Of a stretch of DNA of 64,000 bases, positions 7,360 to 58,821 are shown piece after piece. Source of the DNA: an uncultured bacterium (GTDB taxonomy: Bacteria; Verrucomicrobiota; Verrucomicrobiia; Verrucomicrobiales; Akkermansiaceae); NCBI GenBank assembly GCA_945947905.1, contig CAMEZO010000002.1, positions 1,871 through 65,870 on the forward strand. Direction: 5' to 3'. Under the pieces are notes generated by a model that was not told the DNA's origin, did not search any database, and worked only from the letters and a program-made list of their open reading frames with translations. The translations under genes were made by a program, and so were the position numbers. Each line of letters opens with the position of its first letter. Position 1 is the first letter of the stretch.

Positions 7360-7430
7360 AGCGGGTAGCGGGAATCGAACCCGCATGGCCAGCTTGGAAG
7401 GCTGGAGCTTTGCCATTAAGCTATACCCGC
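7360..7430 (-). tRNA. tRNA-Gly (TCC)
   Basis: Cloverleaf GCGGGTA TA GCTT AATGGCA AAGC T CCAGC CTTCCAA GCTGG CCAT GCGGG TTCGATT CCCGC TACCCGC T. U73 discriminator; CCA not encoded. Confidence 0.95.
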
Positions 7431-7556: not shown

Positions 7557-7627
7557 GCGGGCGTCGTTCAATGGTAGGACGTGTGCTTCCCAAGCATGCG
7601 ACACGGGTTCGATTCCCGTCGCCCGTA
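7557..7627 (+). tRNA. tRNA-Gly (CCC), atypical acceptor end
   Basis: GCGGGCG TC GTTC AATGGTA GGAC G TGTGC TTCCCAA GCATG CGAC ACGGG TTCGATT CCCGT CGCCCGT A. G1-U72 and A73; no CCA. Confidence 0.85.
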
Positions 7628-24818: not shown

Positions 24819-24848
24819 TTCCACGGCCCATTGTGGCCTGATGTCGTC

Positions 24849-27800
24849 ATGAAACTCCGTCTTCCTCTCCTCCTCCGCTTGGCTTTGTTGTCTACTGCTG
24901 CCGCCTACACGCTCGGCAGCGGCTGCCTCTTCGCTGATGATGCGCCCGCCGATGCCGCGCAGGACGACCCCATCGCCGAGGCCGTGGACGAGGAAGAAAG
25001 CGACAGCCCCGCCATCGGCTTCGAGGGCTATACCGAGTCTCAGTTGGTGGATATTCAGTCATCCGACTCCGCAGGCTCCGTCATCCGGCAGATGCTGGAG
25101 AACTCCACCACGGGCGCGGTTGCCAACGTGGGAACCACCTCCTCCACCTCCAACGGCGCCACCACCGCCGCCGAATCCCCCGCGCTCACCCTCACGGCCC
25201 CCGCCGAGCCCGTGACCGACACCTCCCTGACCACCTCCACCCTTTCCGATTCCGCCGGCGAGGGGGCTGTCGCCCCCTTCTTCAGCGCTGAAGAAGCCGC
25301 CGCTCTCGTTGTCGCAAGCCCTGCAACGAGTACACCCTCCCTTAAAAACACCTCAACAGCCACCCTCTCCTCGTCCGACGCATCGGACGAAACTACCTCT
25401 TCCGTGGCTGCTAACGGTGCCTCCTCCTCCATCGCCTCCGTAGGCTCTGCCGGCGGCGCCGGCGCCTCTTCCGGTGGTGGTTCTGCTTCCTACTCCATCA
25501 CCTCCTCGGCCCCCGATAGCTCTTCCTCCCTCGTCATCACCACCCCCACCGACGACACCTCCTCCGACCCCATCGCCGACGACACCTCCTCCGACCCCAT
25601 CGCCGAGGATGTCCTCGAAGACTCCACCACCGAGGACACCACCACCACTTCCACCCTCTCGGATTCTTCTGCCTCCACCCTTGCCGGCACATCCTCTACC
25701 TCCGCCACCATCCGCACCCTCCCGGCGTTGAAACTGCTGGGCGCGACGGAGACATCGACTCAGGGAACAGTTAAGGTTGATGGCGTTGATAGACCATCCG
25801 GTGAAAAATCCGATAAAGGTGTGCAGTTTTTGTATGGCAAGATGGGTGGTAGCGGAGATGATGTCAATATCATTTATTTACATAATGACCCGTCAACCTA
25901 TCCCAGCGTTGTCGAAGTAGACGCTAATTCGTTTTATATTTGCCCGAATAACAAAAGTCCCAAGTTCAGTATAGGGGCTCTCAAAACTGATACCCCTGCG
26001 GCTACTGTTAAAATCCAAAATAACGAGTGGAGCGGGAATGAAAATTCTACGCTGACCCTCACTCTGGATACTCTTTCCGTCAACGGCTCGGCTTCATTGG
26101 AAGTCAACCAGACTCGCACCGGCGCAATTACCGTTTCCATAGGTAAGGTGGCGAATAGCTCAACGGAGTCCACAACGGGTCCTCTTCTCACCAGCGTCAA
26201 AAACTCCGGAACGCTTAATCTGGGTACAAACGCCTCCGGAGAAGGGGAGTCAAAAGTTACAGCGTCGTCCATTTCCATTGGCTCTCTGACGAACAGCGGC
26301 ACGATGACTCTGAATGGAGAGACGACCATTACGGAGAAGCTGACAAACACCGGTACGTTGACGGTAAATAGTGGCGCGACTCTTGTCGGAAAGATTGATT
26401 CAACAGGGACACTGAAGTTGGATGGTGTATGGGATCTTCGCGGTCAAGATAATATGATTAAAGATGGTACCGACCGTCTCGAGACACAGCTTAGAAAGAT
26501 CAATGCGGGTTCCGGAACTGTTAAGGTTAAGGCTGACGGTGCGTATGTTTTCATGCAAGATTATGCCTTGGGTGGACTGTCGCTGGAATTTAGCGGTACC
26601 AGTACCAGTGTCGCTGAGATTAACGGCTATGGATATAAAGACGGTAGTTCCGAGGTCACTGTTGGTGTCGGTTCCCAAGTTAAGACAGGAGGGAATCTGC
26701 GCATTGAATCCAAAGCTACCCTCCTTGTATCCGGAGGAACTGTAAATTGCGGCGGAACCTTGCAGTTAGGGCACGAAGAGACTGGTACAAATGGCAAAAA
26801 TTACGGTCGTTTGACTGTTGCGGAGGGTGGTCACTTGACTGCGGCGAGTATAGGGCAAACGGGAAATCAATATTCCGTGGTCAAGGATGGGAATTTGTTT
26901 ACCATGACAGGAGGAAAATTGACTATTACCTCTGCGATAAATGATGCAATATCGAAGGTTTATACTGTGATTTCCGGGGGTACACTCGATACGTCGCAGG
27001 CCGCTTGGGGAATTAAAGGTAATGGTGACGGGAGTGTGAGTGTGGGCGGTGTAACTGTTTCCGATGCCTATACGACAGAGGAGGGGACGACAGCCTACAG
27101 CCGCAACGCCCTGACATTGACCGGAGCGAACATTACCGGCAACATCAGCTTGGCAGGGAAGGCTGACTTGAACCTGAAGAACGTGACGGTCACCGGGGAG
27201 GATGTCACAGTGGGGGGCGATAACCGAACGATCAGTGTGGCCGAGGGCAGTCTGACTGTTGAGAAGTCTGTTACGACAAAGGGGCTTTTGCAGGTTCAGG
27301 AGAATGCAACCCTGAAACTCAACAACGCGGATACGACGGTGACCACCATCACGAACCGGGACGGTTCTACGGAATCTGCCGCGATTACCGGTGGTAGTGT
27401 GTCGATGACATATGATACTGCTGATAATAAGGGCGTCATCTCCGGGGCGACAATCAGCAATGCTGCAATTGATGTGTCACAGCGGAGTGTGTTGGCGCTT
27501 TCGAACTCTACGCTCGATAGCGGAGTAATTACCCTGAACAGCAATGCTGTGCTCGAGTTGGCCGCTTCAGTCAACGGGACTCTTACCGGTAGTATCGTGT
27601 CTGCTGAAAATGCTACGGAAACGACGCTTCGGGTGAGTGGCTCCGCCGTTGAGACCTTGATCGGGACGGTGAATGTGGCTGCAACGGAGGTTCAATCCGG
27701 TACATTAACCCTGAGCGGCGATAGCATTGCGCACAGCCTGGGGGCTGTGACGGTGGGGAGCAACGCTGCACTGAACGTTGAAGGAAGTTCGCAGACCCTG

Positions 27801-29900
27801 AACTTGAGTGCTGTGGTGCAGAACCAAGGAACCCTGAGCCTCGGTGGTGTTTCTACATTGACATTCACGGTGTCGGATGTGTTCGATAGCTTCTCGTACA
27901 CAGATACAGTAACCGGAGCCGGGGCGAAGAATGGGTTTATCGACCGGTATTGGCTCATTCGGAACAGCGGAAGCGGGACGATGAGTGGACTTGCAGTTTC
28001 GGCGGTGACCGTCAACAGTACTTCCAAGAATGCTATATCTGAAACAACCGGTCTGTATGCCGCAGTGGAGGCAGCAGATCTTGGGTTGACGGATGGTACC
28101 GACCTGAACAACATCTACGTTGTCAACGAGGGCAATGTGGTCTACGATGCAGACTCGAATAGTTCCGGAGCTTCCGCCGTGAAGCAGCTTTGGCTGACGG
28201 GTGGCACGCTGGCATTGGATCAGTCCGATATTAAGTCCGGGGTGGGTGTGCATGTGAAGCAAGACAGCACGGTGAATATCGGAGCTGATCGCACCTTGAC
28301 GGATTCACAGGTGGCCTCTGTTGCGAGCGGGAAAACGCTGACTCTGACGGGTTCGGGAACCTATAGTTTGGCAGTTGATCAAATAGGCGAGACCGCATTG
28401 TTGACATCGGGGGTCGCATTGGCCACGGGTGAAAGCGGTTTCACGGGGACGGTATTGTTGAACAAGGGCACGACCTTGAACGGAACGGATTTGAGCGCGT
28501 TGACCAACGGCAGTTACTCCTCCGTGACAATGAACGGCGTGTCCGGGACGCTGAAATCCGGTGACATCAGCACGAATTTGGTGTTGAAGAACCATGTTGA
28601 TACCGGAAGTGCCGATATTGTAGCTTTGTCGCTCGAAGGAGGTGGAGCGAATATCAATTTCAACGGGGCTATCAGCGGTACCGGAGAGATGAAGATCGCT
28701 CCGAGCGATGCCGCCGCCGAGAATACTCTTATTTTCTCCGGTGATGTAAGCGGATGGACGGGTAAGTTGGAGGTATTCAAAGGTATAGCGAACGTGACAT
28801 TTACCGGAGAGGCCAAGGAGATCAATGCCTACGTTGCTGATACGTTTAGTGATTCTGTGCTGAATATGGTAGTCGATGCCTCGGAGGGCAGGAGTTTCAC
28901 TCAGGGCATTTCGGCGGATACCTTGCGGTTGACAAATGGAACGGAAGGCAAGGTTGTCGATGTGTCAGGTGGTTCCTATATTGTTTCTGCGAAGACAGAC
29001 CTGACAGAGAGTAATGTCATTCTGCAAGTCAAAGGAACAGGGTCTGAGGATAGTAATCTGTATAGCTCTCTTACAGAGTTGGCCTCTGATGGTTCCTCCG
29101 GCATTAATATCTCCGATAGTGAAAAGACTTTGACGAAGATTCGGACTAATACACAAGATGCTTCAAGCTCCGGAAACGCAACTCTTTCATCCTGCACGTT
29201 TACTTATAATAATTCCACCGCAAAGATCTCGGGATCTACCATCGACCGGGCGGTCATTGATGTGGTGAACGGCAGCACCTTGGAATTGAGCGGTGTGGTG
29301 CTCACGAATTCCTGTTGGGTGCGTGATGATGACGCGAGTACCCCGGCGCCTACCGGGAAATTGGTTTTAGACGGGGTGGAGCTGCAGATGGCTAAGGGGA
29401 CCGCGAGCACGGAGGATGGCTCGGGGGTGGCCCTGACGCTCACCGGCGGCACGACGGCAGCTAAGAATGCTGATGGTTCGGCGAAGACGCTTACCGGAAA
29501 GGTCTATGTGATGGATCTCACCCAGATCTCCGATTTTGCCACTATCTCGGGCAGCGGGAATGGGCTGACCCTGAACTTCGATACATACGGGAATGGCTTT
29601 GCAGAGCTTTATGAGACCCTGAAGGGCTATGATTATGTCGCTGTGAAGTTCAGCGATGATGTGCTCTCGGTAGACTTCGAGACCCTGAAAGTGACCTCAA
29701 AGATTACAAACGGCCAGAATGCCGAGGCAACATCGCAGGGCTACTATTACAATAACAACGGCGCCAGCGGTGTGGTGGTTTACTTCGATGCTATCGCTCT
29801 GCCGGAGCCGACGACGAGCACTCTGGGCCTGCTGGCCTTGGCGGCCCTCTGCGCACGGCGCCGTCGCTCCCGCACCCGCGCGCACGCCGAGCATGCATAG
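24849..29900 (+). CDS. Large PEP-CTERM surface protein (Ser/Thr-rich linker plus beta-helix-like passenger), 1683 aa
   Basis: Leader MKLRLPLLLRLALLS, S/T/D-rich stalk, Gly/Thr/Ser beta-rich repeats, C-terminal LPEPTTSTLGLLALAALCARRRR. Confidence 0.88.
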   Translation: MKLRLPLLLRLALLSTAAAYTLGSGCLFADDAPADAAQDDPIAEAVDEEESDSPAIGFEGYTESQLVDIQSSDSAGSVIRQMLENSTTGAVANVGTTSSTSNGATTAAESPALTLTAPAEPVTDTSLTTSTLSDSAGEGAVAPFFSAEEAAALVVASPATSTPSLKNTSTATLSSSDASDETTSSVAANGASSSIASVGSAGGAGASSGGGSASYSITSSAPDSSSSLVITTPTDDTSSDPIADDTSSDPIAEDVLEDSTTEDTTTTSTLSDSSASTLAGTSSTSATIRTLPALKLLGATETSTQGTVKVDGVDRPSGEKSDKGVQFLYGKMGGSGDDVNIIYLHNDPSTYPSVVEVDANSFYICPNNKSPKFSIGALKTDTPAATVKIQNNEWSGNENSTLTLTLDTLSVNGSASLEVNQTRTGAITVSIGKVANSSTESTTGPLLTSVKNSGTLNLGTNASGEGESKVTASSISIGSLTNSGTMTLNGETTITEKLTNTGTLTVNSGATLVGKIDSTGTLKLDGVWDLRGQDNMIKDGTDRLETQLRKINAGSGTVKVKADGAYVFMQDYALGGLSLEFSGTSTSVAEINGYGYKDGSSEVTVGVGSQVKTGGNLRIESKATLLVSGGTVNCGGTLQLGHEETGTNGKNYGRLTVAEGGHLTAASIGQTGNQYSVVKDGNLFTMTGGKLTITSAINDAISKVYTVISGGTLDTSQAAWGIKGNGDGSVSVGGVTVSDAYTTEEGTTAYSRNALTLTGANITGNISLAGKADLNLKNVTVTGEDVTVGGDNRTISVAEGSLTVEKSVTTKGLLQVQENATLKLNNADTTVTTITNRDGSTESAAITGGSVSMTYDTADNKGVISGATISNAAIDVSQRSVLALSNSTLDSGVITLNSNAVLELAASVNGTLTGSIVSAENATETTLRVSGSAVETLIGTVNVAATEVQSGTLTLSGDSIAHSLGAVTVGSNAALNVEGSSQTLNLSAVVQNQGTLSLGGVSTLTFTVSDVFDSFSYTDTVTGAGAKNGFIDRYWLIRNSGSGTMSGLAVSAVTVNSTSKNAISETTGLYAAVEAADLGLTDGTDLNNIYVVNEGNVVYDADSNSSGASAVKQLWLTGGTLALDQSDIKSGVGVHVKQDSTVNIGADRTLTDSQVASVASGKTLTLTGSGTYSLAVDQIGETALLTSGVALATGESGFTGTVLLNKGTTLNGTDLSALTNGSYSSVTMNGVSGTLKSGDISTNLVLKNHVDTGSADIVALSLEGGGANINFNGAISGTGEMKIAPSDAAAENTLIFSGDVSGWTGKLEVFKGIANVTFTGEAKEINAYVADTFSDSVLNMVVDASEGRSFTQGISADTLRLTNGTEGKVVDVSGGSYIVSAKTDLTESNVILQVKGTGSEDSNLYSSLTELASDGSSGINISDSEKTLTKIRTNTQDASSSGNATLSSCTFTYNNSTAKISGSTIDRAVIDVVNGSTLELSGVVLTNSCWVRDDDASTPAPTGKLVLDGVELQMAKGTASTEDGSGVALTLTGGTTAAKNADGSAKTLTGKVYVMDLTQISDFATISGSGNGLTLNFDTYGNGFAELYETLKGYDYVAVKFSDDVLSVDFETLKVTSKITNGQNAEATSQGYYYNNNGASGVVVYFDAIALPEPTTSTLGLLALAALCARRRRSRTRAHAEHA
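25549..25602 (+). repeat. 27-bp in-frame tandem duplication in the stalk
   Basis: CCGACGACACCTCCTCCGACCCCATCG x2 (DDTSSDPIA x2). Confidence 0.9.
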
Positions 29901-30375
29901 CCTTGAGCAGACTTCACACCGCTGTGGTAGAAGCTCCCGAGAAGTTTCTGATCGCGGAATAAAGGGAATTTTCGGAGAGGGAGAGGCATGCATAGCCTTG
30001 AGCAGACTTCATACCGCCGTAGTGGGAGAACCCGAGAGGTTGCTGACCGCGGAATAAAAGGAATTTTCGGAGACTGTATATCATGCTGCTCTCAGTCAAG
30101 ACGTCAGAGCATATTCATTGTAGGTAGCTTCAGAATTTTATTAAAATAACCAAGGAGCCTACCACCCCGGCGGCATGCAGTCTGTACCAAGCCAAGCATA
30201 CCACCGACTCTCCAAAAATTCCTTTTATTCCGCGGTCCTCCAACTCCCGCTTCCAACCATCCCGGCGGCATGCAGTCTGCATCGCGCTAAGCACGCTGTC
30301 AACTCTCCCAAAAATTCTTTTTATTCCGCGGTCCTTTAACTCCCGCTTCCTACCACCCCGGCGGCATGAAGTCTG
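29891..30375. repeat. Composite palindromic repeat, copy 3
   Basis: Motif A at 29908 and 30003, motif B at ~29948 and 30042, core at 30072-30164, inverted motif A at 30170, 30265, 30361 (95/96-bp steps). Confidence 0.9.
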
Positions 30376-30430
30376 CCACCCCTTTGCTCCTTCTGCGTTC
30401 GGTTTTTGAGGGGGCGGTGGAGATTTTCTC

Positions 30431-30478: not shown

Positions 30479-32188
30479 ATGCATTATCCCAGCCTCATCA
30501 GCACGCTCAAGAACTACGACAAGAAGAAATTTACTGCGGATTTAACGGCCGGGATCACGGTAGGCGTGGTAGCGCTGCCGCTGGCGATAGCCTTTGCGAT
30601 TGCCTGCGGCGTGAAAGAAATCACCCCCGCCTCCGGCCTGATCACGGCGGTGGTGGCCGGCTTCATGATCTCCCTGTTAGGCGGAAGCAAGTTCCAGATC
30701 GGCGGCCCGACGGGCGCCTTCGTGGTCCTGATCGCCGGCGTTGCGGGCAGCTACGGCATCCAAGGCCTGATCCTCTGCACCCTGATGGCAGGCATCTTCC
30801 TCATCCTCTTCGGCCTGGCGCGATTGGGCGCCCTCATCAAATACATCCCGTACCCCGTCACGACCGGCTTCACCTCCGGCATCGCCGTCACGATCCTGAC
30901 CACCCAGGTACGCGACCTGCTGGGCCTGACGATCGAAGGCGAGATACCCGCCGCCTTCATCCCCCGCTGGGGATGTTATTTAGAAAACCTCGGCAGCATC
31001 AACCCCTGGGCGGTCGGCCTCTCCGCGCTGACCCTGGCCGTCATCCTCCTGACCCGCCGCCTGTTCCCGCGCGCCCCCTTCATGCTCGTGGGCATGCTGG
31101 TCGCCACCGCCCTCTGCGCCTGCTTCGACCTCCCCGTCGAGACCATCCAATCCCGCTTCGGCGAGCTGCCCACGGGCCTCCCCGAGCTGCGGATGCCCGA
31201 GTTTGAATGGGCCGCGCTGCCCGCCCTGGTCAAGCCCGCCTTCATCATCGCCCTGCTCGCCGCCATCGAATCCCTGCTCAGCGCCAGCGTGGCGGACGGC
31301 ATGACCGGCAGCCGCCACCACCCGAACACCGAACTCATCGCCCAAGGCGCGGGCAACATCGCCTCCGCCCTCTTCGGCGGCATCCCCGCCACCGGTGCGA
31401 TTGCCCGCACCGCCACCAACATCCGCGCCGGCGCCAAGAGCCCCGTCTCCGGCCTGGTGCACGCCGTCACCCTGCTGCTCATCCTCCTGCTCGCCGGCCG
31501 CTACGCCGGCATGGTACCGCTCGCCGCGCTGGGGAGCATCCTGCTGCTGGTATGTTGGAACATGGCGGAAGTCGACACCTTCCTGCACCTGCTGAAAGGC
31601 CCGCGCCGGGATGCTGCGGTGCTCTGCATCACCTTCATCCTCACCGTGCTGGTCGACCTGGTGGTGGCCGTGGAAGTCGGCGTGGTGCTGGCGTCCCTCC
31701 TCTTCATCGGCCGCATGGCACAGATCAGCAACGTGGCCTCCATCAGCGCCGAGATCATGGGCGAAGACCCCGACGAGATACCCGCCCGCTCCCGCTACCT
31801 GCGCTATGTGCCGGATAACGTTGAAATCTTCGACGTGCAAGGCCCCTTCTTCTTCGGCGCGGTGGAGCAGTTCAAGGACATCGTCTTCAAGACCCTGGAG
31901 CACAACATCGAATACGTGTTACTGCGCCTGCGCCTGGTTCCCGCGCTGGATGCCACGGGCCTGCATGTGCTTGAGGACTTCCTGGAGTACTGCCACCGGC
32001 ACAACATCACCCTGCTGCTCTGCGGTGTGCAACCCCAGCCGATGAAAGTCATCAACCGCGACTTCCCCTTCCTGAACGACCTGCACAAAGAAAACATCTG
32101 TGAAGACATCGACGCCGCCCTGGCCCGCATTCAGGAGCTGGAGACGCAGAAGATGCTCGTGCATCTGCACGCCCCCGCCGAGCCCTGA
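30479..32188 (+). CDS. SulP/SLC26 family anion or dicarboxylate transporter with STAS domain
   Basis: DLTAGITVGVVALPLAIAFA, GGSKFQIGGPTGAF, ESLLSA, GGIPATGAIART and a C-terminal STAS (FFFGA, LDATG). Confidence 0.93.
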   Translation: MHYPSLISTLKNYDKKKFTADLTAGITVGVVALPLAIAFAIACGVKEITPASGLITAVVAGFMISLLGGSKFQIGGPTGAFVVLIAGVAGSYGIQGLILCTLMAGIFLILFGLARLGALIKYIPYPVTTGFTSGIAVTILTTQVRDLLGLTIEGEIPAAFIPRWGCYLENLGSINPWAVGLSALTLAVILLTRRLFPRAPFMLVGMLVATALCACFDLPVETIQSRFGELPTGLPELRMPEFEWAALPALVKPAFIIALLAAIESLLSASVADGMTGSRHHPNTELIAQGAGNIASALFGGIPATGAIARTATNIRAGAKSPVSGLVHAVTLLLILLLAGRYAGMVPLAALGSILLLVCWNMAEVDTFLHLLKGPRRDAAVLCITFILTVLVDLVVAVEVGVVLASLLFIGRMAQISNVASISAEIMGEDPDEIPARSRYLRYVPDNVEIFDVQGPFFFGAVEQFKDIVFKTLEHNIEYVLLRLRLVPALDATGLHVLEDFLEYCHRHNITLLLCGVQPQPMKVINRDFPFLNDLHKENICEDIDAALARIQELETQKMLVHLHAPAEP

Positions 32189-50714: not shown

Positions 50715-53417
50715 TCAGTGTTGCACACTCCTCCTGCGGCGGCGGTATGCTGTCCCGAGGAGGGAGATCAGCGCAAGTATGGCGGTTGATGGCTCCGGAA
50801 CGATGGTGAGCGAGCCGCTGAGTACAAGTGTATTGCCGCTTACCGAATAGACTGCGTTGTTGACCGTTATGCTCCAATCGGATACGATATCCGGGTTAAA
50901 CAGGCCTTCTGTTTCATCCGTCAGGGTGAATGTTGTGTTCTGCAACAGGGTGGCTAAGACGTCGCTGCTGAGAGCCTCGTACCCGGCCCCCCCGGTAATC
51001 AGTGTCAGAGAGAAATCTTGAGACGTATGGAGCAGGTTGATATCCAGCATGTTCCCTCCCAAGGCAATGACGATCTTTGCCCCGTCTTGAATGGTCAGAG
51101 TGCCCGAATTCAGAGTGATCTGGGAGTAGGTGTTGCTGGCCCAGCCGACGTTGCTGCCGGAGGAGGGAGTATCCAGCCCGTCAACGCTAAATACGGTAGT
51201 AGAACCTGCCTGTAGCTCCAGGCTCTCATAGTTCGGGCAGCCGGGGGAATTCCCCACCACAAGCTGGCCTCCGCTTTGTATCTGCACCTTGCCCGCGACT
51301 GTGCCGCTACCGGAGAAGGTGCCGAGTACATCGACCAAGCTCACTGTCACATTTCCATCATTCGAAAGTACACTGTCGCTCACGACACGCAGTACTCCAT
51401 CGTCTGATTCCGGGGTGACTTTGATGCTGCTGCCTGCACTCAGGCGGCTCGTCTCATGGCTGATGGTTTCCAGCGCTGCCCCTTTCCACTCTAAGGTGCT
51501 GCTGCTTCCTTCCTGCAGGGCAACTCGAGCCTCCGTCTCTTTTGAATTGTTGACATAGGTGCCGATGGTACCCACGGTGCACTCTTCGGTGCCCTGTTCT
51601 ACCGTCATGCTACCTCCGCTCAGGGCAATGTTCTCACTTCCTGTTTTCTTGTTCAGCTGGTCTGTGCTCAGGCCTAAGGTGATGTTCTCGCCGATCTCGT
51701 GGCGGTAAGAGAAGGTGTAATTTGCGTGGTCAGATGTCAGCCCGATCCCGTTACGCAGCGCCGTGTTGATGCTAGCCAAATCCGTTTGACTCAAATACTG
51801 CATGCTGTCTTTGCCCACCAGCAGTGTCCCGAGGGTGATGACTCCGCTATCGGCGGTCGCCTCGCTACCGTAGGCGGCACCATAGACGGCATTCATGGAG
51901 CTTAAGCCTGTTTGCAGGTCGATCGTCATTTCCGGTGGGGTGGTTGTCTCCTGCGCGGTGCGTCCGGAAATACTTGCCGAGCCGGTTTGAAATTCTGCGC
52001 CGCCGTATAACACGATTGTTCCGGTTTCTCCGTCTCCGCCGCTGTACTGAATTGTCCCGTGATTCACTACCGGGCTGCCGGAGTAGATCTCACAGGATTT
52101 TGCAGTGAGGGTTGATGTGTCATCGATAGTCAGAGATGCTCCTCCATAGATAGCAATGCCTTCAGTAGCTACAATCCCTGAACCATTCGATAGTGATGTG
52201 GTAGCAGAATTCAAGTATACAGCTGCACTCTTGAGAAACGAATGGTCGGTTGCTGTTACGTTAGCCCCATTGTATATTTTCAACTGGCTGTCTGCCTGAA
52301 TAAGCCCATTCGTCGATACAACAATCTCCGGTTTAAAACCAGCATTACCGAAATAGATGGTCTCAGTGGCGTGTAATTTTGCCCCGTTTGAGACGGTAAG
52401 TGAACCTGTTGCATCTTCCCGTCCCTCCACTGGTGTTCCCACTGCAAAGTATAAGGTTCCGTTGATTTCATAGGTGGAGGCATTCCCTTCTGTATCTGTG
52501 CCATCTATCAGCATGTTGACATGTGTGTCTGCATAATATGCGGCATAGACAGTAGTTCTTACGGTGTCAGTGCCGGCGCGCATGATAGCACCATCTGTGA
52601 TATTGATATGGTTTTGGGATGACCCGACCCATCCCCATATGACATAGTTGGGGGAATCAACCGAGACTGAAGTAAACTCTGACCCGGTGCCAGTTACATT
52701 GAGTGTTAAGTTTCCGGCGTAAATCCCCATACCGAGATTAAGTTTAGAGCCACTTTCTACACTGATCTCTGCGGAGCTGAGGACGTTTCCACTTGGTGCC
52801 GTATCACATTGGAATCCCCCGTTCGCTATGCTGTACTCGCGATAGAGTGTGTCGCCCTCCACTCCCTGATATGTTCCGCAAACATGCCCTGAGGTGTTTG
52901 AGTCCTGCGGAAGCGTGGCATATGAAATTGAGCCGGCAAAAAGGCAGTGATAGACGTAGAGTTCAGACTTGTTCTTCAAAACCAGCTTGCCGTCACCATC
53001 CCGACCTCCTACAACCAAGGAATTGGAATAGCCCCTACCTGTTGAAGTCGGTCCTGTTTGTTTGTAAGTGGCATTGTCGAGCTCAAGGCATGCGTTCACG
53101 CCGCCTATGGTCAGGTTCGGACCATCTCTGTAGGTGTCATTGGTAATGTGGTAGTTTGTGAGCTGCATCGTGCCCTCCCGCACCACAAGGGAGTAGAGCA
53201 TGGCTGCATCTCGATTCACGACAAGGGTCCCCTGTCCATCTTTGACGATAACAGTCTGACTCTTATCCGTATTTTCGGTTCCCAAATTGCCCGTAAAGGT
53301 TTCCGTGCCGGTTGAGACCGTGATGATCTCCTCCGGGCGCATGGCATCGTATGCCCACAAGCTACTCTGGGCGGCAAGTATCCCCAGCACAGCCGCGATA
53401 AACAGATTCCTTTTCAT
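50715..53417 (-). CDS. PEP-CTERM surface protein with autotransporter-associated beta-strand repeat, 900 aa
   Basis: Signal peptide MKRNLFIAAVLG, KDGQGTLVV repeat, GNSPG motif, C-terminal VPEPSTAILALISLLGTAYRRRRR. Confidence 0.88.
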   Translation of the reverse strand: MKRNLFIAAVLGILAAQSSLWAYDAMRPEEIITVSTGTETFTGNLGTENTDKSQTVIVKDGQGTLVVNRDAAMLYSLVVREGTMQLTNYHITNDTYRDGPNLTIGGVNACLELDNATYKQTGPTSTGRGYSNSLVVGGRDGDGKLVLKNKSELYVYHCLFAGSISYATLPQDSNTSGHVCGTYQGVEGDTLYREYSIANGGFQCDTAPSGNVLSSAEISVESGSKLNLGMGIYAGNLTLNVTGTGSEFTSVSVDSPNYVIWGWVGSSQNHINITDGAIMRAGTDTVRTTVYAAYYADTHVNMLIDGTDTEGNASTYEINGTLYFAVGTPVEGREDATGSLTVSNGAKLHATETIYFGNAGFKPEIVVSTNGLIQADSQLKIYNGANVTATDHSFLKSAAVYLNSATTSLSNGSGIVATEGIAIYGGASLTIDDTSTLTAKSCEIYSGSPVVNHGTIQYSGGDGETGTIVLYGGAEFQTGSASISGRTAQETTTPPEMTIDLQTGLSSMNAVYGAAYGSEATADSGVITLGTLLVGKDSMQYLSQTDLASINTALRNGIGLTSDHANYTFSYRHEIGENITLGLSTDQLNKKTGSENIALSGGSMTVEQGTEECTVGTIGTYVNNSKETEARVALQEGSSSTLEWKGAALETISHETSRLSAGSSIKVTPESDDGVLRVVSDSVLSNDGNVTVSLVDVLGTFSGSGTVAGKVQIQSGGQLVVGNSPGCPNYESLELQAGSTTVFSVDGLDTPSSGSNVGWASNTYSQITLNSGTLTIQDGAKIVIALGGNMLDINLLHTSQDFSLTLITGGAGYEALSSDVLATLLQNTTFTLTDETEGLFNPDIVSDWSITVNNAVYSVSGNTLVLSGSLTIVPEPSTAILALISLLGTAYRRRRRSVQH

Positions 53418-53662
53418 CAAATTGAGTGTACGGCATTTTGAATGCTGTAGCAAGCCAAAAATGCGGATTTCCCTCATTTTTTCAGCACTTTTTTCTGGCC
53501 TTCTGCCGAAAAAAAAGGAGAGGGCAAAAACACCCAAATTCAACGCAACTCGTTGAGCATCAACGAGTTATATGCCCTATGCATTCTGAATGCTGTAGGC
53601 ACGCTCCCTCCGTCGCATTCCAAGTGAGGTGCCTTATCGGAGGAATGCCTCACCCGATGGAA

Positions 53663-55221
53663 TTAGCCCTTCTTCCACATGAGCATAATTCGTCTGGGGT
53701 CACTGGGATTCTTTACAGAGGATATGCAATGGTAGCCGCTTTCACGAAGAAGAATAGCGCTTCTTCTATCAGCTTTCATGGTAGCAAAGCACCCTTCTTC
53801 CAGTTCTGGCTTCCCCCACCACTGAGATTCGATAACATAGTCCGGTATGCGCCGGGCTATTGCTCGTGCCGGTGCATCGGTAGGGGGAGCACCGTTCAGT
53901 GAACACCATTCCGGGATGGCCGGTAGCGCACGGCTCTTGAGTCCGAATCCTTCGTCAAGGTGGCCTATATACAGAATTTTTGATTCGGGGTGTTGCGCCA
54001 GTTCCCGTTCAATAAAAGCCACATCAGGCGCCGGTTTGCTTGTGATTCTGTACAAGTTGAGTTTGTGCCAATTTCCGCAGAACTGAATGGAACACAGCGC
54101 AATGATTCCCATGGCTATTCCCGTGGTTCCCCAACGCGGAGCGTGTGCCCATTGATTCAGAAGCGCGGTGCAGGGGATGATGACAAGGGGTGAAATCATG
54201 AGTAAATAATATCCATATTGGCCGGCTGCATTCGGAATATAAACAGAGGCCACCAACAGTAACAAACTGCTGCGCATAAAGAGTCGACATTCGCCTTTCA
54301 GGGGAAGCGCAGCTATTGAGGAAATAATGATGATAGTCATGGTAGCGCCTACCCATTGCAGGCTCAGCCCGAAGAGACGAATGAGATTCACGAATGAAAC
54401 AATGCTGCCCTGGTATGAGTTATAGGTGCTGAAATTAAGAGTGAAATAGACTCGAATGAAGTCATCCCAGATTCCTGTCGCAGAGAAATAGATACAAAAG
54501 GGCAAAGCCCATAATGCTGCACCTATGCAGAAGGCGGTGCAGTAACAAAGTAGCAACACTGCGTTTCTGCTTGTTCGTATGATATGTATGAAGATGAGAG
54601 CAGAAAGTGCGAGCGGGAACAGAATGTTGTTGTATTTAATGAGCATGCAAATGGAGAAGCAGGAACCTGCTGCAATTCCCGTTATGATAAAATCAGCAAA
54701 ACGAACCTTTCCCGCGATGACTGTGCGAATGAAATGATAAAGGCAAATAGCAGTGGGAACCATCATGATGATTTCCGACTGATTGCCGCCGCCGAACATG
54801 AGCGGATTGACCACATAAAGCAAGATCAATGCCGGGGCTAACATCGACTTCGTGGATGAGTGCAAAAATAATAGGGCTGTTCTGTACGAATAGAATAGCG
54901 TGATACTTACAAACAACGCATGGATAAGGTAGACAACGTACGGATTGCCGGGACTGATGAGGTACGCAAATGCGTAAACGGCCATCAGAAGCGGGCCTTT
55001 CACATCTACGATATCAACATATGGGAGATTTCCGTCTGCCCATACTTTTCCCAACATGTAGAACATGGCTTGGTCACAGCCGAAAATATGGGAAAAGATG
55101 GGAGAAAATGTATTGCAGAAAAACAGGGTAGCATACGAGAAAAGACAACAGAGCAAGAAGGCTCGGACTAATGAAATCTCGGATTTCTTATGCTGGGCTG
55201 GGCTGGGCTGGGCTGGGTCAT
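53663..55221 (-). CDS. GT-C fold membrane glycosyltransferase, frameshifted at a pentanucleotide tract (apparently phase-OFF)
   Basis: DQAMFYMLG...PYVDIVDVKGPLL, GGNQSE, multiple TM helices. Natural ATG 55221 overlaps the upstream stop but is out of frame with the 53663..55156 ORF unless the repeat number is 4 or 7. Confidence 0.75.
55192..55216 (-). repeat. (CCAGC)5 simple sequence repeat
   Basis: (GCTGG)5 on the plus strand; on the coding strand it begins 2 nt after the ATG at 55221. Confidence 0.92.
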
Positions 55222-56363
55222 TGTTTGCTATCCGTTATAGTGTGCATGCAGTTTTCCTTCCCCCGGAAGGTTTGGCCGTTGAGGGCGGGGAGGAAGAGGT
55301 GAGATGGGATGTGGGAGAGGCGGAGGGCGGCGGTGAGGTCGTCGAGGGTTTCTTGGTAGCCTTCGTTGGCGAGTTGCCAGGTGCCGAAGTGGCAGGCGAG
55401 GGCAAGGCGGGGAGAGAGGGTGCGGAAGCAGTCGACGGCTTCGTAGGGGCCCATGTGGTTATTTTTGATCCAGTCCGGGCGGTAGGCGCCGATGGGGATG
55501 AGCGCGAGGTCCGGGGAGCCGAGGCGTCGGCGGATGTCCGCGAAACAGGGGGAGGCTGCGGAGTCACCGACGTAGTAGAGGGAAGGCCCGCCGGGGGAGG
55601 TGAGGTAGAGTCCGCCCCAGAGGGAGCGTCGGGCGTCGGCGGAACCCTTGTAGCGGTTGCTCCAGTGGTGGGCCGGGGTGAGGGTGTAGGTGATACCGTT
55701 ATAGGTATGCGACTGCCACCAATCCAGCTCGATGCAGCGGACTGGGCCGCAGTGGTAGCGCAGCAGGCTCTTCAGGCCGAGCGGAACGATGTAGAGTGGG
55801 TTATCCCGCTTCGTGAGACGGCGCAGGGTGTCGGTATCGAAATGGTCGTAGTGGTCGTGCGACAGGAAGCATACATCGATGCGGGGTAGGGCGTCCCACT
55901 CAATCCCGACGGGTCGGCAGCGCTTCGGTCCCGCGAACTGGACAGGGGAGGTGTAGTCGCTCCAGACGGGATCCGTCAGGATATTCTGCCCGGCGGTGCG
56001 GAGGAGAAAAGTCGAGTGGTTGACGAGCGTGGCCTCCCACTCCTCACCCTCCACGCGCGGGGCAAGCTGCGGGCTGTGCTCATTGAGATCCGTGCGCGGA
56101 TACTCGCCCCGAGTGGGGCGGTCGGCCAGCCATTTGCTCCAGCTTGCATGCAGCTTGGCAGCGGGGCGTCCGTTGTGGAAACGCTCCCCGTCGAAGTGGT
56201 CGGAGACAGGCCCGCTCCACGAACCCGGGCGGCAAATGAGCCTCGGCAGGGCTGCATCCACGAGCAGGCAGACCGCCGCCAAGCTGATGAGCGCAGCGAC
56301 GACCTTCAGCAGGCCAATGGCCAAGCGGCGGCACAGCGTGCGCGGTTGCTCGGTGGGTTGCAT
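55218..56363 (-). CDS. MBL-fold metallo-hydrolase (NAPE-PLD/RomA-like)
   Basis: NHSTF, LTDPVWS, SHDHYDH, PAHHWS, YVGDS, IPIGAY, HFGTW. Promoter TTGCCA-17-TACAAA lies 6 nt before the ATG. Confidence 0.9.
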   Translation of the reverse strand: MQPTEQPRTLCRRLAIGLLKVVAALISLAAVCLLVDAALPRLICRPGSWSGPVSDHFDGERFHNGRPAAKLHASWSKWLADRPTRGEYPRTDLNEHSPQLAPRVEGEEWEATLVNHSTFLLRTAGQNILTDPVWSDYTSPVQFAGPKRCRPVGIEWDALPRIDVCFLSHDHYDHFDTDTLRRLTKRDNPLYIVPLGLKSLLRYHCGPVRCIELDWWQSHTYNGITYTLTPAHHWSNRYKGSADARRSLWGGLYLTSPGGPSLYYVGDSAASPCFADIRRRLGSPDLALIPIGAYRPDWIKNNHMGPYEAVDCFRTLSPRLALACHFGTWQLANEGYQETLDDLTAALRLSHIPSHLFLPALNGQTFRGKENCMHTITDSKQ

Positions 56364-56445: not shown

Positions 56446-57174
56446 ATGAAAGTACAATGGACATTCCATGAGCTGCCGGAGTGCGACTCCACCTTCCTCG
56501 AGGCCCGCCGGCTGCCCGCTTGGTCGGCGGTGAACGCTATCACGCAGCATCGGGGAAGGGGGCGCTTCAACCGCACCTGGTTCGGTGAACCCGGTGGCCT
56601 GTGGATTTGCTATAACGTGCCCTTGGACGTTGAGAGCGAGCGCAACTGGGGCCTGCTCCCCTTGGTGGCGGGCGCGGCGATGATGCAGGCCCTGTCCCCC
56701 TATGGTATCCCCGGGCTGCGCCTGCGCTGGCCGAACGACGTGATGGTCGGCCGCGGAAAATTAGCAGGTATCTTGGTGGAACGGCCCGCGCTCCGTATGG
56801 CCTCGATCGGCATCGGTGTCAACATTGCCAACGACGTCGCAGGACTTGCCGGGCGTACGCAGGATGTCGCCGTGCGCCTGGCTGATTTGGTGACGCATTG
56901 CCCGAGTGTGCATGCCTTCCGCGCCGAACTGGCGGAGCACCTCGCCGAGGTCTTTACCGCCTTCTGCGAGCGCGGACTCGCCGCCGTTACCCCGCTGCTG
57001 GAGGCCGCTTGGGATCGCAGCGTTGTGTCCGAGGTCGAGACCGACACCGCCCGCTACCGGGGTCTGTTTGCCGGCATCGCCGAAGACGGCTCCCCCCTCC
57101 TGCGGCAGTCGGACGGCAGCATCCTCACCATCCCCGGCATCACTGTCAATCGCCTCACCGAGCCGCAGGCGTGA
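56446..57174 (+). CDS. birA: Biotin--protein ligase (no N-terminal HTH)
   Basis: CDST, QHRGRGRFNRTW, RWPND, KLAGILVE, IGIGVN. Promoter TGGACA-17-TATGAT lies 7 nt before ATG 56446. Confidence 0.9.
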   Translation: MKVQWTFHELPECDSTFLEARRLPAWSAVNAITQHRGRGRFNRTWFGEPGGLWICYNVPLDVESERNWGLLPLVAGAAMMQALSPYGIPGLRLRWPNDVMVGRGKLAGILVERPALRMASIGIGVNIANDVAGLAGRTQDVAVRLADLVTHCPSVHAFRAELAEHLAEVFTAFCERGLAAVTPLLEAAWDRSVVSEVETDTARYRGLFAGIAEDGSPLLRQSDGSILTIPGITVNRLTEPQA

Positions 57175-58720
57175 GCTGGCTCGTGTCCTCTTGGAGACCG
57201 GATTTCTTCCATGCAGAGATGATGGAATTGCTGCCGTTAGGGCATTTCGCACTTGCGAAGCAATAATATCCGCTTTCCTTTAGTATTTCATCTTTTATAT
57301 TCTCTGCTCCTTGAATCTTACGATAGGGATCTTCACAGACAAAGACATAATCGGGAACTCCTTTGTTAAGGGATTTTTGTAAATCCTTGGACGTCACTTT
57401 GAGCCCATTAAGCCTACACCATGTGGGTACAGCCGGTAATGACGATCCCCTAAGTCCTAATCCTATGTCCAATGTGTCAACATACATAATCCTCGATTCC
57501 GGGTGTTCGAGTAGCTCCTGCTCAAGTAATTTGATGTCCTGAGGTGTGTGATGAAATATGGATAGATTGTTTTTTGCCAGCCAGTTTCCGGAAAACTGAA
57601 CAGTCATGAGCGCATTAACGAACAGAAGAAGCAATGTGGATGCGAAATGTAGTGTAGGAGAACAACGTAGAACGAGGTAGATCAACGGAAAAATTATCGG
57701 TGGGCACGTCATCAGGTAGTAGTAGTGATAATAATTTCCACCTTGGTTCGATATGTACAACGATACAATCAATAGTGAAAAGAGTAAGCTGGGGGCCTTA
57801 TTCGCAGAAGATCGGAATACGGTTGTGTGAAGAGCGAGTATAGAAGTAATTAGTGTAATCGAGCTGGCGTGTTTGACGAAAAGTATGGACGAAACTATTA
57901 GCCGTGAAGAATTTAGGAGCCCTCCACGAGATGCAGAATATGTCTCAAAATTCAGTTTGAAATAAACGTTAATAAAATCATCCCAAGTTTTCGAACATGT
58001 TAAATATATGATGAAAGGTGTTAAGAGTAATAGAGATGATACTATGAAATAGCAAAGATAATGTCTGAGGTATATGGAAAAATCTCGCTTGAGAAGAGAG
58101 AAAACCAGCATGAAAAGGGTTAGTGTGCTGGGGAAGACGATGTTGTTGTATTTAATCAGGAAGCAGATAGCAAAGCATGAACCTGCTGCGATTCCCAAAG
58201 AGCGGTACTTCCTCTTCTCTTCTCGATTTGTGTAAAAAAAACATGTAGTATAGTAAATACATATGGAAACCGGGAGCATCATAATGATCTCCGATTGGTT
58301 TCCTCCGTGATAATACCAGGGGGCGCAGATACAAGGCAGGACTAAGGCGGCGGCCAAGATTGCTTGGTACGTATTTTGTAGAAATAGACTTGACGTTTTG
58401 TATGAGAAGAAGAGAGTACCCGCAGTAAACAGAGAGTTGAAGACATACACCATGCATGGATTCCCCGGACTCGTCAAATAGATGAGTGCGTATATGGCGA
58501 TCAAGAGGGGCCCCTTTACATCAATGATGTCTGCATATGGAAGATAACCTGCACACCAGGCTCTCCCGAGCATATAGAACATGCAAGGGTCCGGTTCAAA
58601 GAGGTGTGAAAAAAGGGGGGAAAATCGGTTGCAAAACAGCAGTGTGGCAAGAGTGTAGAGAACAAATCCGAAGAAGATAAGTACTTGCATACGCCAAGAA
58701 CTAGCATTTGTCTTAATCAT
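57155..58720 (-). CDS. GT-C fold membrane glycosyltransferase, paralog of 53663..55221
   Basis: DPCMFYMLG...PYADIIDVKGPLL, GGNQSEIIMM, KYNNI-x-FP. Promoter TTGACT-17-TATAAG at 58794..58766. AT-rich. Confidence 0.8.
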   Translation of the reverse strand: MIKTNASSWRMQVLIFFGFVLYTLATLLFCNRFSPLFSHLFEPDPCMFYMLGRAWCAGYLPYADIIDVKGPLLIAIYALIYLTSPGNPCMVYVFNSLFTAGTLFFSYKTSSLFLQNTYQAILAAALVLPCICAPWYYHGGNQSEIIMMLPVSICIYYTTCFFYTNREEKRKYRSLGIAAGSCFAICFLIKYNNIVFPSTLTLFMLVFSLLKRDFSIYLRHYLCYFIVSSLLLLTPFIIYLTCSKTWDDFINVYFKLNFETYSASRGGLLNSSRLIVSSILFVKHASSITLITSILALHTTVFRSSANKAPSLLFSLLIVSLYISNQGGNYYHYYYLMTCPPIIFPLIYLVLRCSPTLHFASTLLLLFVNALMTVQFSGNWLAKNNLSIFHHTPQDIKLLEQELLEHPESRIMYVDTLDIGLGLRGSSLPAVPTWCRLNGLKVTSKDLQKSLNKGVPDYVFVCEDPYRKIQGAENIKDEILKESGYYCFASAKCPNGSNSIISAWKKSGLQEDTSQLTPAAR

Positions 58721-58821
58721 TGGATGATGTCGAGAGATTAAATGATGAACAACTGTGAATGATTTCCTTATAATAGTAATGTGCAGGAAAGTCAAGACAA
58801 ATCATCCGTCGTTGGCCGTAT

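Follow-up and report, generated by a model that had tools for sequence, protein, structure and literature searches.

A probable SSR contingency locus: a pentanucleotide tract at the start of a predicted GT-C glycosyltransferase gene in pig-gut Akkermansia

Pentanucleotide tracts serve as coding-region switches in Neisseria, as in opa with (CTCTT)n and modB with (CCCAA)n. More broadly, SSRs located just 3' of the start codon in low-GC accessory genes for glycan transferases are the classic contingency loci of Haemophilus influenzae, Neisseria, and Campylobacter (PMC2651432; PMC8437040), among them the H. influenzae LPS glycosyltransferase genes lic2A, lgtC, and lex2A, which carry tetranucleotide tracts at their 5' ends (PMC2651432). 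The pentanucleotide tract of H. influenzae hsdM, (GACGA)4, switches at a high rate with only four units (PMC2651432). In Akkermansia muciniphila, phase variation has been described for Amuc_1413, through slipped-strand frameshifting at a poly-G9 tract (PMC13055324), and for cps1, through DNA inversion at an inverton (PMC13343947). No pentanucleotide or GT-C case of phase variation in Akkermansia was found in the literature that we searched.

The locus described here lies in a 64-kb stretch of DNA (64,000 nucleotides, referred to below as the window), and we consider it probable that it is a slipped-strand SSR contingency locus acting on an accessory, low-GC GT-C gene of pig-gut Akkermansia. 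Such a locus would combine a known mechanism with a new organism and a new gene family. It shares with the H. influenzae LPS genes a perfect SSR directly after the start codon, a unit that is not a multiple of three, a unit number that varies between strains, and a low-GC accessory gene. It differs from them in its pentanucleotide unit, CCCAG, in its 5 or at least 7 units as against typically 10-38, in its polytopic GT-C product where theirs are soluble GT-A/GT-B enzymes (GT2, GT8, or GT25), and in its host, a verrucomicrobial gut commensal. With hsdM, opa, and modB it has in common a 5-nt unit in the 5' coding region, giving three-phase ON/OFF/OFF behavior, whereas those are restriction-modification or adhesin genes with other repeat sequences. 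The two A. muciniphila systems belong to the same genus and exert stochastic ON/OFF control of surface polysaccharide functions, but they operate through a homopolymer or an inversion; here, the repeat is a pentanucleotide and the gene is a strain-variable GT-C gene in a pig-associated lineage of 61% GC.

The GT-C gene starts on the minus strand, as do all of its features given below, at an ATG (55219-55221) that overlaps the TGA (55220-55218) of the upstream MBL-fold hydrolase gene (55218-56363, minus strand; 381 aa; Pfam Lactamase_B_2, E 4e-40), whose last ~10 codons lie in the low-GC insert. This ATGA overlap (55221-55218), which an earlier note on this DNA had pointed out and which reads the same way on the minus strand here, suggests translational coupling of the two genes. 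Codons 2-10 consist of a perfect (CCCAG)5 tract (55193-55217), followed by an extra C at 55192, so that the layout around the start is ...GATAGCAAACA ATGA (CCCAG)5 CATAAGAAATCCGAG..., or, written out in triplets, GAT AGC AAA CAA TGA (CCCAG)5 C ATA AGA AAT CCG AGA TTT CAT TAG. Tandem Repeats Finder calls the tract at 55192-55217 as GCTGG x5.2 with 100% matches. In the whole 64-kb window it is the sole repeat of unit size 4-8 with at least three copies, and in 300 first-order Markov simulations of the window, pentanucleotide tracts of at least four units never arose. The tract is hence a perfect tandem repeat in 5' coding sequence, with a unit length that is not a multiple of three, beyond what is expected by chance.

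At five units, the frame opened by the ATG reads MTQPSPAQPSIRNPRFH*, a peptide of 17 codons closed by a TAG at 55168-55170, which bears out the main claim of the earlier note, namely that the tract after the start codon puts the gene OFF. Varying the unit number in silico, we found that n=1, 4, 7, and 10 fuse the ATG to the long ORF, giving proteins of 512, 517, 522, and 527 aa, and that with every other n the ATG frame terminates within 7-27 codons; the frame arithmetic proposed before (4 or 7 units ON, 5 or 6 OFF) holds accordingly. The long ORF itself covers 497 codons from a TTG at 55156 (53663-55156), which is, as also previously stated, the earliest canonical start in that frame and lies 11 nt past the OFF-frame stop. 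Between the tract and this TTG, the codons HKKSEISLVRAF (55157-55192) encode a positively charged N-terminal tail and the first third of TM1; their translation requires n=1, 4, 7, and so on, and they are kept as NNKSDISLIRVF in a 78%-identical orthologue (L004). Further into the ORF lie an invariant Asp codon, GAC (55075-55073), and the Met picked by gene callers (55066-55064). The strain of the window would thus be in the OFF state, with a unit number that comes from one assembly and may reflect a consensus or an error of assembly.

The glycosyltransferase label of the earlier note is right at the level of the fold, because the predicted structure matches GT-C enzymes and homologues of the protein match PMT_2. 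Direct matches were absent: Pfam and NCBIfam searches with E values up to 10 yielded no match for the GT-C protein or its paralogue, and PDB sequence searches with 6- and 100-sequence profiles returned only noise for both. A word-indexed search of 5.8 billion proteins recovered only four clusters; an exhaustive HMMER search of 1.84 billion representatives with a 6-sequence profile recovered 3,526 relatives at E<=1e-3, with 110 at <=1e-30. Ten relatives were sampled, found at E 1e-83 to 1e-32: five match PMT_2 (PF13231) above the gathering cut-off, one (P0110) carries a fused GT2 domain, and one a fused GDPD domain. A scan of proteins on JGI metagenome contigs gave no relative.

An AlphaFold2 model built from a 6-sequence alignment had a pLDDT of only 38 and was replaced by one from a 100-sequence alignment, which reached a pLDDT of 92.5 and a pTM of 0.93. 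All 21 Foldseek matches of this model in the PDB at E<=1e-3 are GT-C enzymes, including STT3, ArnT, PglB, DPY19, AftA, and AftD (TM 0.58/0.55 for ArnT, 5f15). Numbering from the His codon at 55192 as residue 1, the model places TM1 at residues 5-26 (EISLVRAFLLCCLFSYATLFFC) and a small extracytoplasmic domain at the C-terminus. Among 100 family members, D40, D60, D63, K65, E140, and K186 are invariant or nearly so (D40 in 96/96, D60 in 97/100, and D63 in 96/100 in alignment A3); in the model, the conserved acidic residues fall in the first extracytoplasmic loop after TM1, where we take the Asp residues to be catalytic, by reference to PglB, ArnT, and PMT. The predicted fold, the order of TM1 and a loop with an invariant Asp, and the small C-terminal domain are those of the PMT_2/ArnT enzymes (PF13231; ArnT 5f15/5ezm), from which the window protein differs in having no direct Pfam match and only 11-14% sequence identity to solved structures. 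On the model, then, the product is a GT-C fold glycosyltransferase, which would take a sugar from a polyprenyl-phosphate donor and attach it to a glycan or protein outside the cytoplasm; the GT2-fused homologue is compatible with a polyprenyl-phosphate-sugar donor.

The run searches returned 44 runs, all in the form of k=31 Logan contigs; those with the locus are pig-gut, faecal, and digester metagenomes. Alleles were compared over the sequence between the MBL stop and a conserved CATAAG. L004 has no repeat and is ON. L008 (an ENA MEGAHIT contig) and L009 (GCA_004563385.1) share an interrupted tract of four-unit length, ATGA-TCCAG-CCCAC-CCCAG-CCCAG, and are likewise ON, reading MIQPTPAQHKESE... 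over 517 aa; the interruptions have likely stabilized this tract. The window, with (CCCAG)5, is OFF, as are L011 and L012 (also runs X10 and X14), which have three units, ATGA-ACCAG-(CCCAG)2, with the remainder of the gene intact. In L014, two units (TCCAG-CCCAG) leave the gene OFF, with a -1 frameshift downstream; L005 and L010 (also X17) have three units and have lost the start (ATG to ATA), with two single-base frameshifts besides. Both states therefore occur with an otherwise intact ORF, ON in L008/L009 and OFF in the window and L011/L012. The ON alleles read directly have an interrupted tract (L008/L009) or none (L004), and no perfect 4- or 7-unit ON allele was spanned.

Longer tracts are indicated by where contigs end. 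On the gene side, the k=31 contig breaks off exactly 30 nt into pure repeat in L001 (9 samples), in L013, and in eight runs (X1, X2, X6 at 48x, X7, X8, and X18/X19/X25 at 22-28x), and the MBL-side k=31 contig of L006 likewise ends after 30 nt of pure repeat. In de Bruijn simulations, homogeneous tracts of up to 6 units are spanned by k=31 contigs, mixtures with a shorter allele break after 5 x n_min + 1 nt, and a 30-nt end arises only if all alleles have at least 6 units and some at least 7. Taken together, the contig ends and the simulation indicate that tracts reach at least 7 units in many pig-gut metagenomes. Among strains that are 95-97% nucleotide-identical across the gene, the tract hence spans 2 to at least 7 units, with all indels being whole units. 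The earlier note had proposed counting units in other strains and regarded a number invariant at five as evidence against a switch; with 2, 3, 4, 5, and at least 7 units observed, the number is not invariant.

Fragments of the GT-C gene are present in pig-gut metatranscriptome contigs (X40-X42), which makes its transcription in vivo probable. In one RNA contig the repeat breaks off after 26 nt, which fits five units mixed with longer alleles and coverage dropout equally well. RNA run X39 contains two 31-nt pure-repeat contigs at depths of 10.5 and 29.5, compared with ~4.3 for the flanking gene contigs; the excess could come from a tract of far greater length (some 8-13 units) or from repeat k-mers of other DNA. 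We rejected an estimate of tract length from repeat depth in this run, as the same 31-mers possibly come from the host or other DNA.

The verrucomicrobial host proposed in the earlier note can be narrowed to Akkermansia. A scan of GTDB genomes returned one locus, SFDX01000004.1 ("MAG: Akkermansia muciniphila W0P28.008"), and one member of a cluster bears the name Akkermansia sp. The GC content of the window is 61%, and that of A. muciniphila proper is about 56%, which suggests an Akkermansia lineage other than A. muciniphila proper.

Comparison with relatives, together with the AlphaFold2 placement of TM1, supports ATG 55221 as the true, ancestral start of the GT-C gene, in agreement with the earlier note. 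The repeat-free L004 has the homologous ATG in frame (MSQSCSIPNNKSDISLIRVFLLCCLFSY...), and in L004, L008, and L009 alike this ATG opens into the complete ORF of 517 aa; the spacing from the Met to KS(E/D)IS is nine residues both in L004 and in the four-unit form of the window gene. At the position of TTG 55156, L004 has CTA, so the TTG start is not conserved. The enzyme could alternatively be expressed constantly from a start 3' of the tract (TTG 55156, re-initiation after the 17-codon uORF, or Met 55066), with the unit number having little or no effect. The short distance of 11 nt from the OFF-frame stop to the TTG makes termination-reinitiation conceivable, and automatic gene calls start at the internal Met (467 aa) in all relatives, including those with an open 517-aa ATG frame. 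We nevertheless judge constant expression to be most unlikely. A TTG start would cut the charged tail and, in the AlphaFold2 model, 8 of the 22 residues of TM1; it would leave 17 residues ahead of a conserved Ser, compared with a family median of 31 (94 of 96 homologues have a longer N-terminus, and only 2/96 have <=18 residues), and the peptide upstream of this position is conserved in the ATG frame of L004 despite its CTA. Met 55066-55064 sits downstream of TM1 and of the Asp that is invariant in 96/96 homologues and, with both lost, would be unable to give a functional enzyme. Public protein entries (P0001/P0002/P0159) lack TM1 and the invariant Asp because they were called from this internal Met.

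The two other readings that we weighed concern the alleles themselves. Repeat tracts are prone to assembly error, and the exact sequence of the window occurs in none of the runs (the best share of window 31-mers in any run is 0.66); five units might then be an artefact of assembly or consensus in a strain that truly has 4 or 7 units (ON) or is mixed, at a locus that would still be repeat-variable. Ordinary reads easily span a 26-nt tract, however, and independent assemblies agree on the short alleles (L008 with L009, L005 with L010, and L011 with L012), which makes such an artefact very unlikely. Plain decay of an accessory GT-C gene, with the tract as a mutational hotspot and no selected reversible switching, has more in its favor: L005/L010 combine the missing ATG with two more frameshifts, L014 has its extra -1 frameshift, the gene is missing from many co-occurring strains (whose contigs diverge at 55247-55259), and tract-length variation within one clone was not seen in the k=31 contigs that make up the data. 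As judged from substitution rates, purifying selection nevertheless acts on the GT-C ORF. The window allele has an unbroken 509-codon frame 3' of the tract and differs from L001 and L008 by a dS of about 0.08-0.09 and a dN of about 0.02, a dN/dS of about 0.2, and the long perfect-tract alleles likewise have an intact 509-codon ORF with dN/dS of about 0.2. Additional frameshifts are confined to 2-3-unit alleles that are out of frame or lack the ATG, and at least 7 perfect units in many independent samples are the mark of a maintained hypermutable tract rather than of a single lesion. We therefore regard decay as unlikely. A handful of alleles would fit a picture in which reversion of long perfect tracts is frequent enough for the ORF to stay under selection, and short OFF alleles are in effect locked and decaying.

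Under the contingency reading that we prefer, slipped-strand mispairing at (CCCAG)n during replication would add or remove units, and the frame would shift with every change because the unit is 5 nt long. With 1, 4, 7, or 10 units, the ATG would be linked to the enzyme, such ON alleles differing from one another only by PSPAQ pentapeptides in the cytoplasmic tail before TM1; with any other number, translation would terminate upstream of TM1 and of the catalytic-loop Asp (OFF). The tract would in this way switch on and off the translation of a GT-C enzyme whose gene is tied to the MBL gene by translational coupling at the ATGA overlap. Switching may be frequent and reversible within a lineage. 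Read on the plus strand, the tract is (CTGGG)n, with runs of three G and 2-nt loops, and forms a formal G-quadruplex motif from four units upward; such a structure might promote slippage. The enzyme would act on LPS, capsule, or protein outside the cytoplasm, and the switch would presumably vary the cell surface; it may serve evasion of phage or of host immunity, as the earlier note had proposed.

A search for an inverton or another inverted-repeat switch around both GT-C genes found none, and a scan for promoters and terminators gave background levels only. Elsewhere in the window, two arrays of ~95-nt tandem units (29891-30073 and 30158-30376) stand in opposite orientation, with arms of 69-79 nt that are 76-78% complementary, and fill the intergenic gap between a 1689-aa ORF (24831-29900) and a 569-aa ORF (30479-32188). 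Invertons are common in Akkermansia, and the arrays might be an invertible or regulatory element. The only Rfam matches of the window are two divergent tRNA genes, at 7360-7430 (minus strand) and 7557-7627 (plus strand).

The neighbors of the GT-C gene encode the MBL hydrolase, a BirA-like ligase, CstA, a PEP-CTERM protein, a TPR protein, and a GH20 protein; adjacent GtrA/GtrB-like or other glycan genes were not found among them. GtrC-type enzymes modify O-antigen, and we considered a Gtr-type (GtrABC) O-antigen cassette, which was ruled out as a gtrA flippase gene and a gtrB GT2 gene are not adjacent to the window gene, unlike in GtrC-type systems. Phase variation of the Salmonella gtr genes is, moreover, epigenetic (Dam/OxyR) and not SSR-based as at the window locus.

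Several features mark this part of the window as strain-variable. At 55247-55259, much deeper contigs of the MBL gene from several metagenomes leave the window sequence for unrelated DNA, which indicates that the GT-C gene and the last ~10 MBL codons form an accessory low-GC island absent from co-occurring Akkermansia. The paralogous GT-C gene (57155-58720, minus strand; 521 aa; 41% identity; GC about 40%) has no SSR and a promoter-like upstream region of its own. It lies between cstA and the birA-like gene as an insert that varies among strains (57155-58795, minus strand; GC about 38-45% compared with 62-65% for the neighbors): the window, L006, and L007 have it, and L005 lacks it, its cstA ending at 2044 and its birA starting at 2048. 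Cluster P0004 (L006) is a mosaic that agrees with the window paralogue over its first ~195 and last ~40 residues and is strongly diverged in between, a pattern suggestive of diversification by recombination.

On the other side of the GT-C gene, a gene for a 942-aa PEP-CTERM-anchored protein (50715-53543, minus strand; GC 47-56%) lies before the TPR/Sel1 gene. This gene is a second strain-specific insert: L001, L005, L008, and L010 lack it, and in them the TPR gene and GH20 come immediately after the GT-C gene. The 5' region of the PEP-CTERM gene contains an A8/T8 homopolymer (53509-53516) upstream of the likely signal-peptide start. In L014 (2094-2424 of that contig), a sulfatase gene follows the GT-C gene in place of TPR/GH20, and the island thus occupies more than one genomic context.

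A wider reading, which we advance tentatively and short of endorsing it, is that this is the first pentanucleotide contingency locus described in Verrucomicrobiota and that its populations display the whole life cycle of such a locus: a repeat-free ancestor, the birth and expansion of a perfect tract with a possible template-strand G-quadruplex, "locked ON" alleles that have been stabilized, and "locked OFF" alleles that have decayed. In that case, the gene under its control would belong to a GT-C subfamily not classified before, through which a gut commensal varies its surface as a defense against phage or the host's immune system.

Akkermansia is of interest as a beneficial member of the gut flora, and both its association with mucus and its signaling to the host are governed by surface glycans. 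Phase variation in the genus is documented to date for an inverton and a poly-G tract; a pentanucleotide GT-C switch, if true, would add a second, pathogen-style contingency mechanism. The locus also carries a warning for public data, as gene callers mis-start the GT-C gene and k=31 assemblies break it systematically. It points to an unannotated GT-C subfamily of about 3,500 relatives, of which this member is without a direct Pfam match. The tract would, if the switch is real, provide a simple PCR-sized marker for surface heterogeneity in pig-gut populations.
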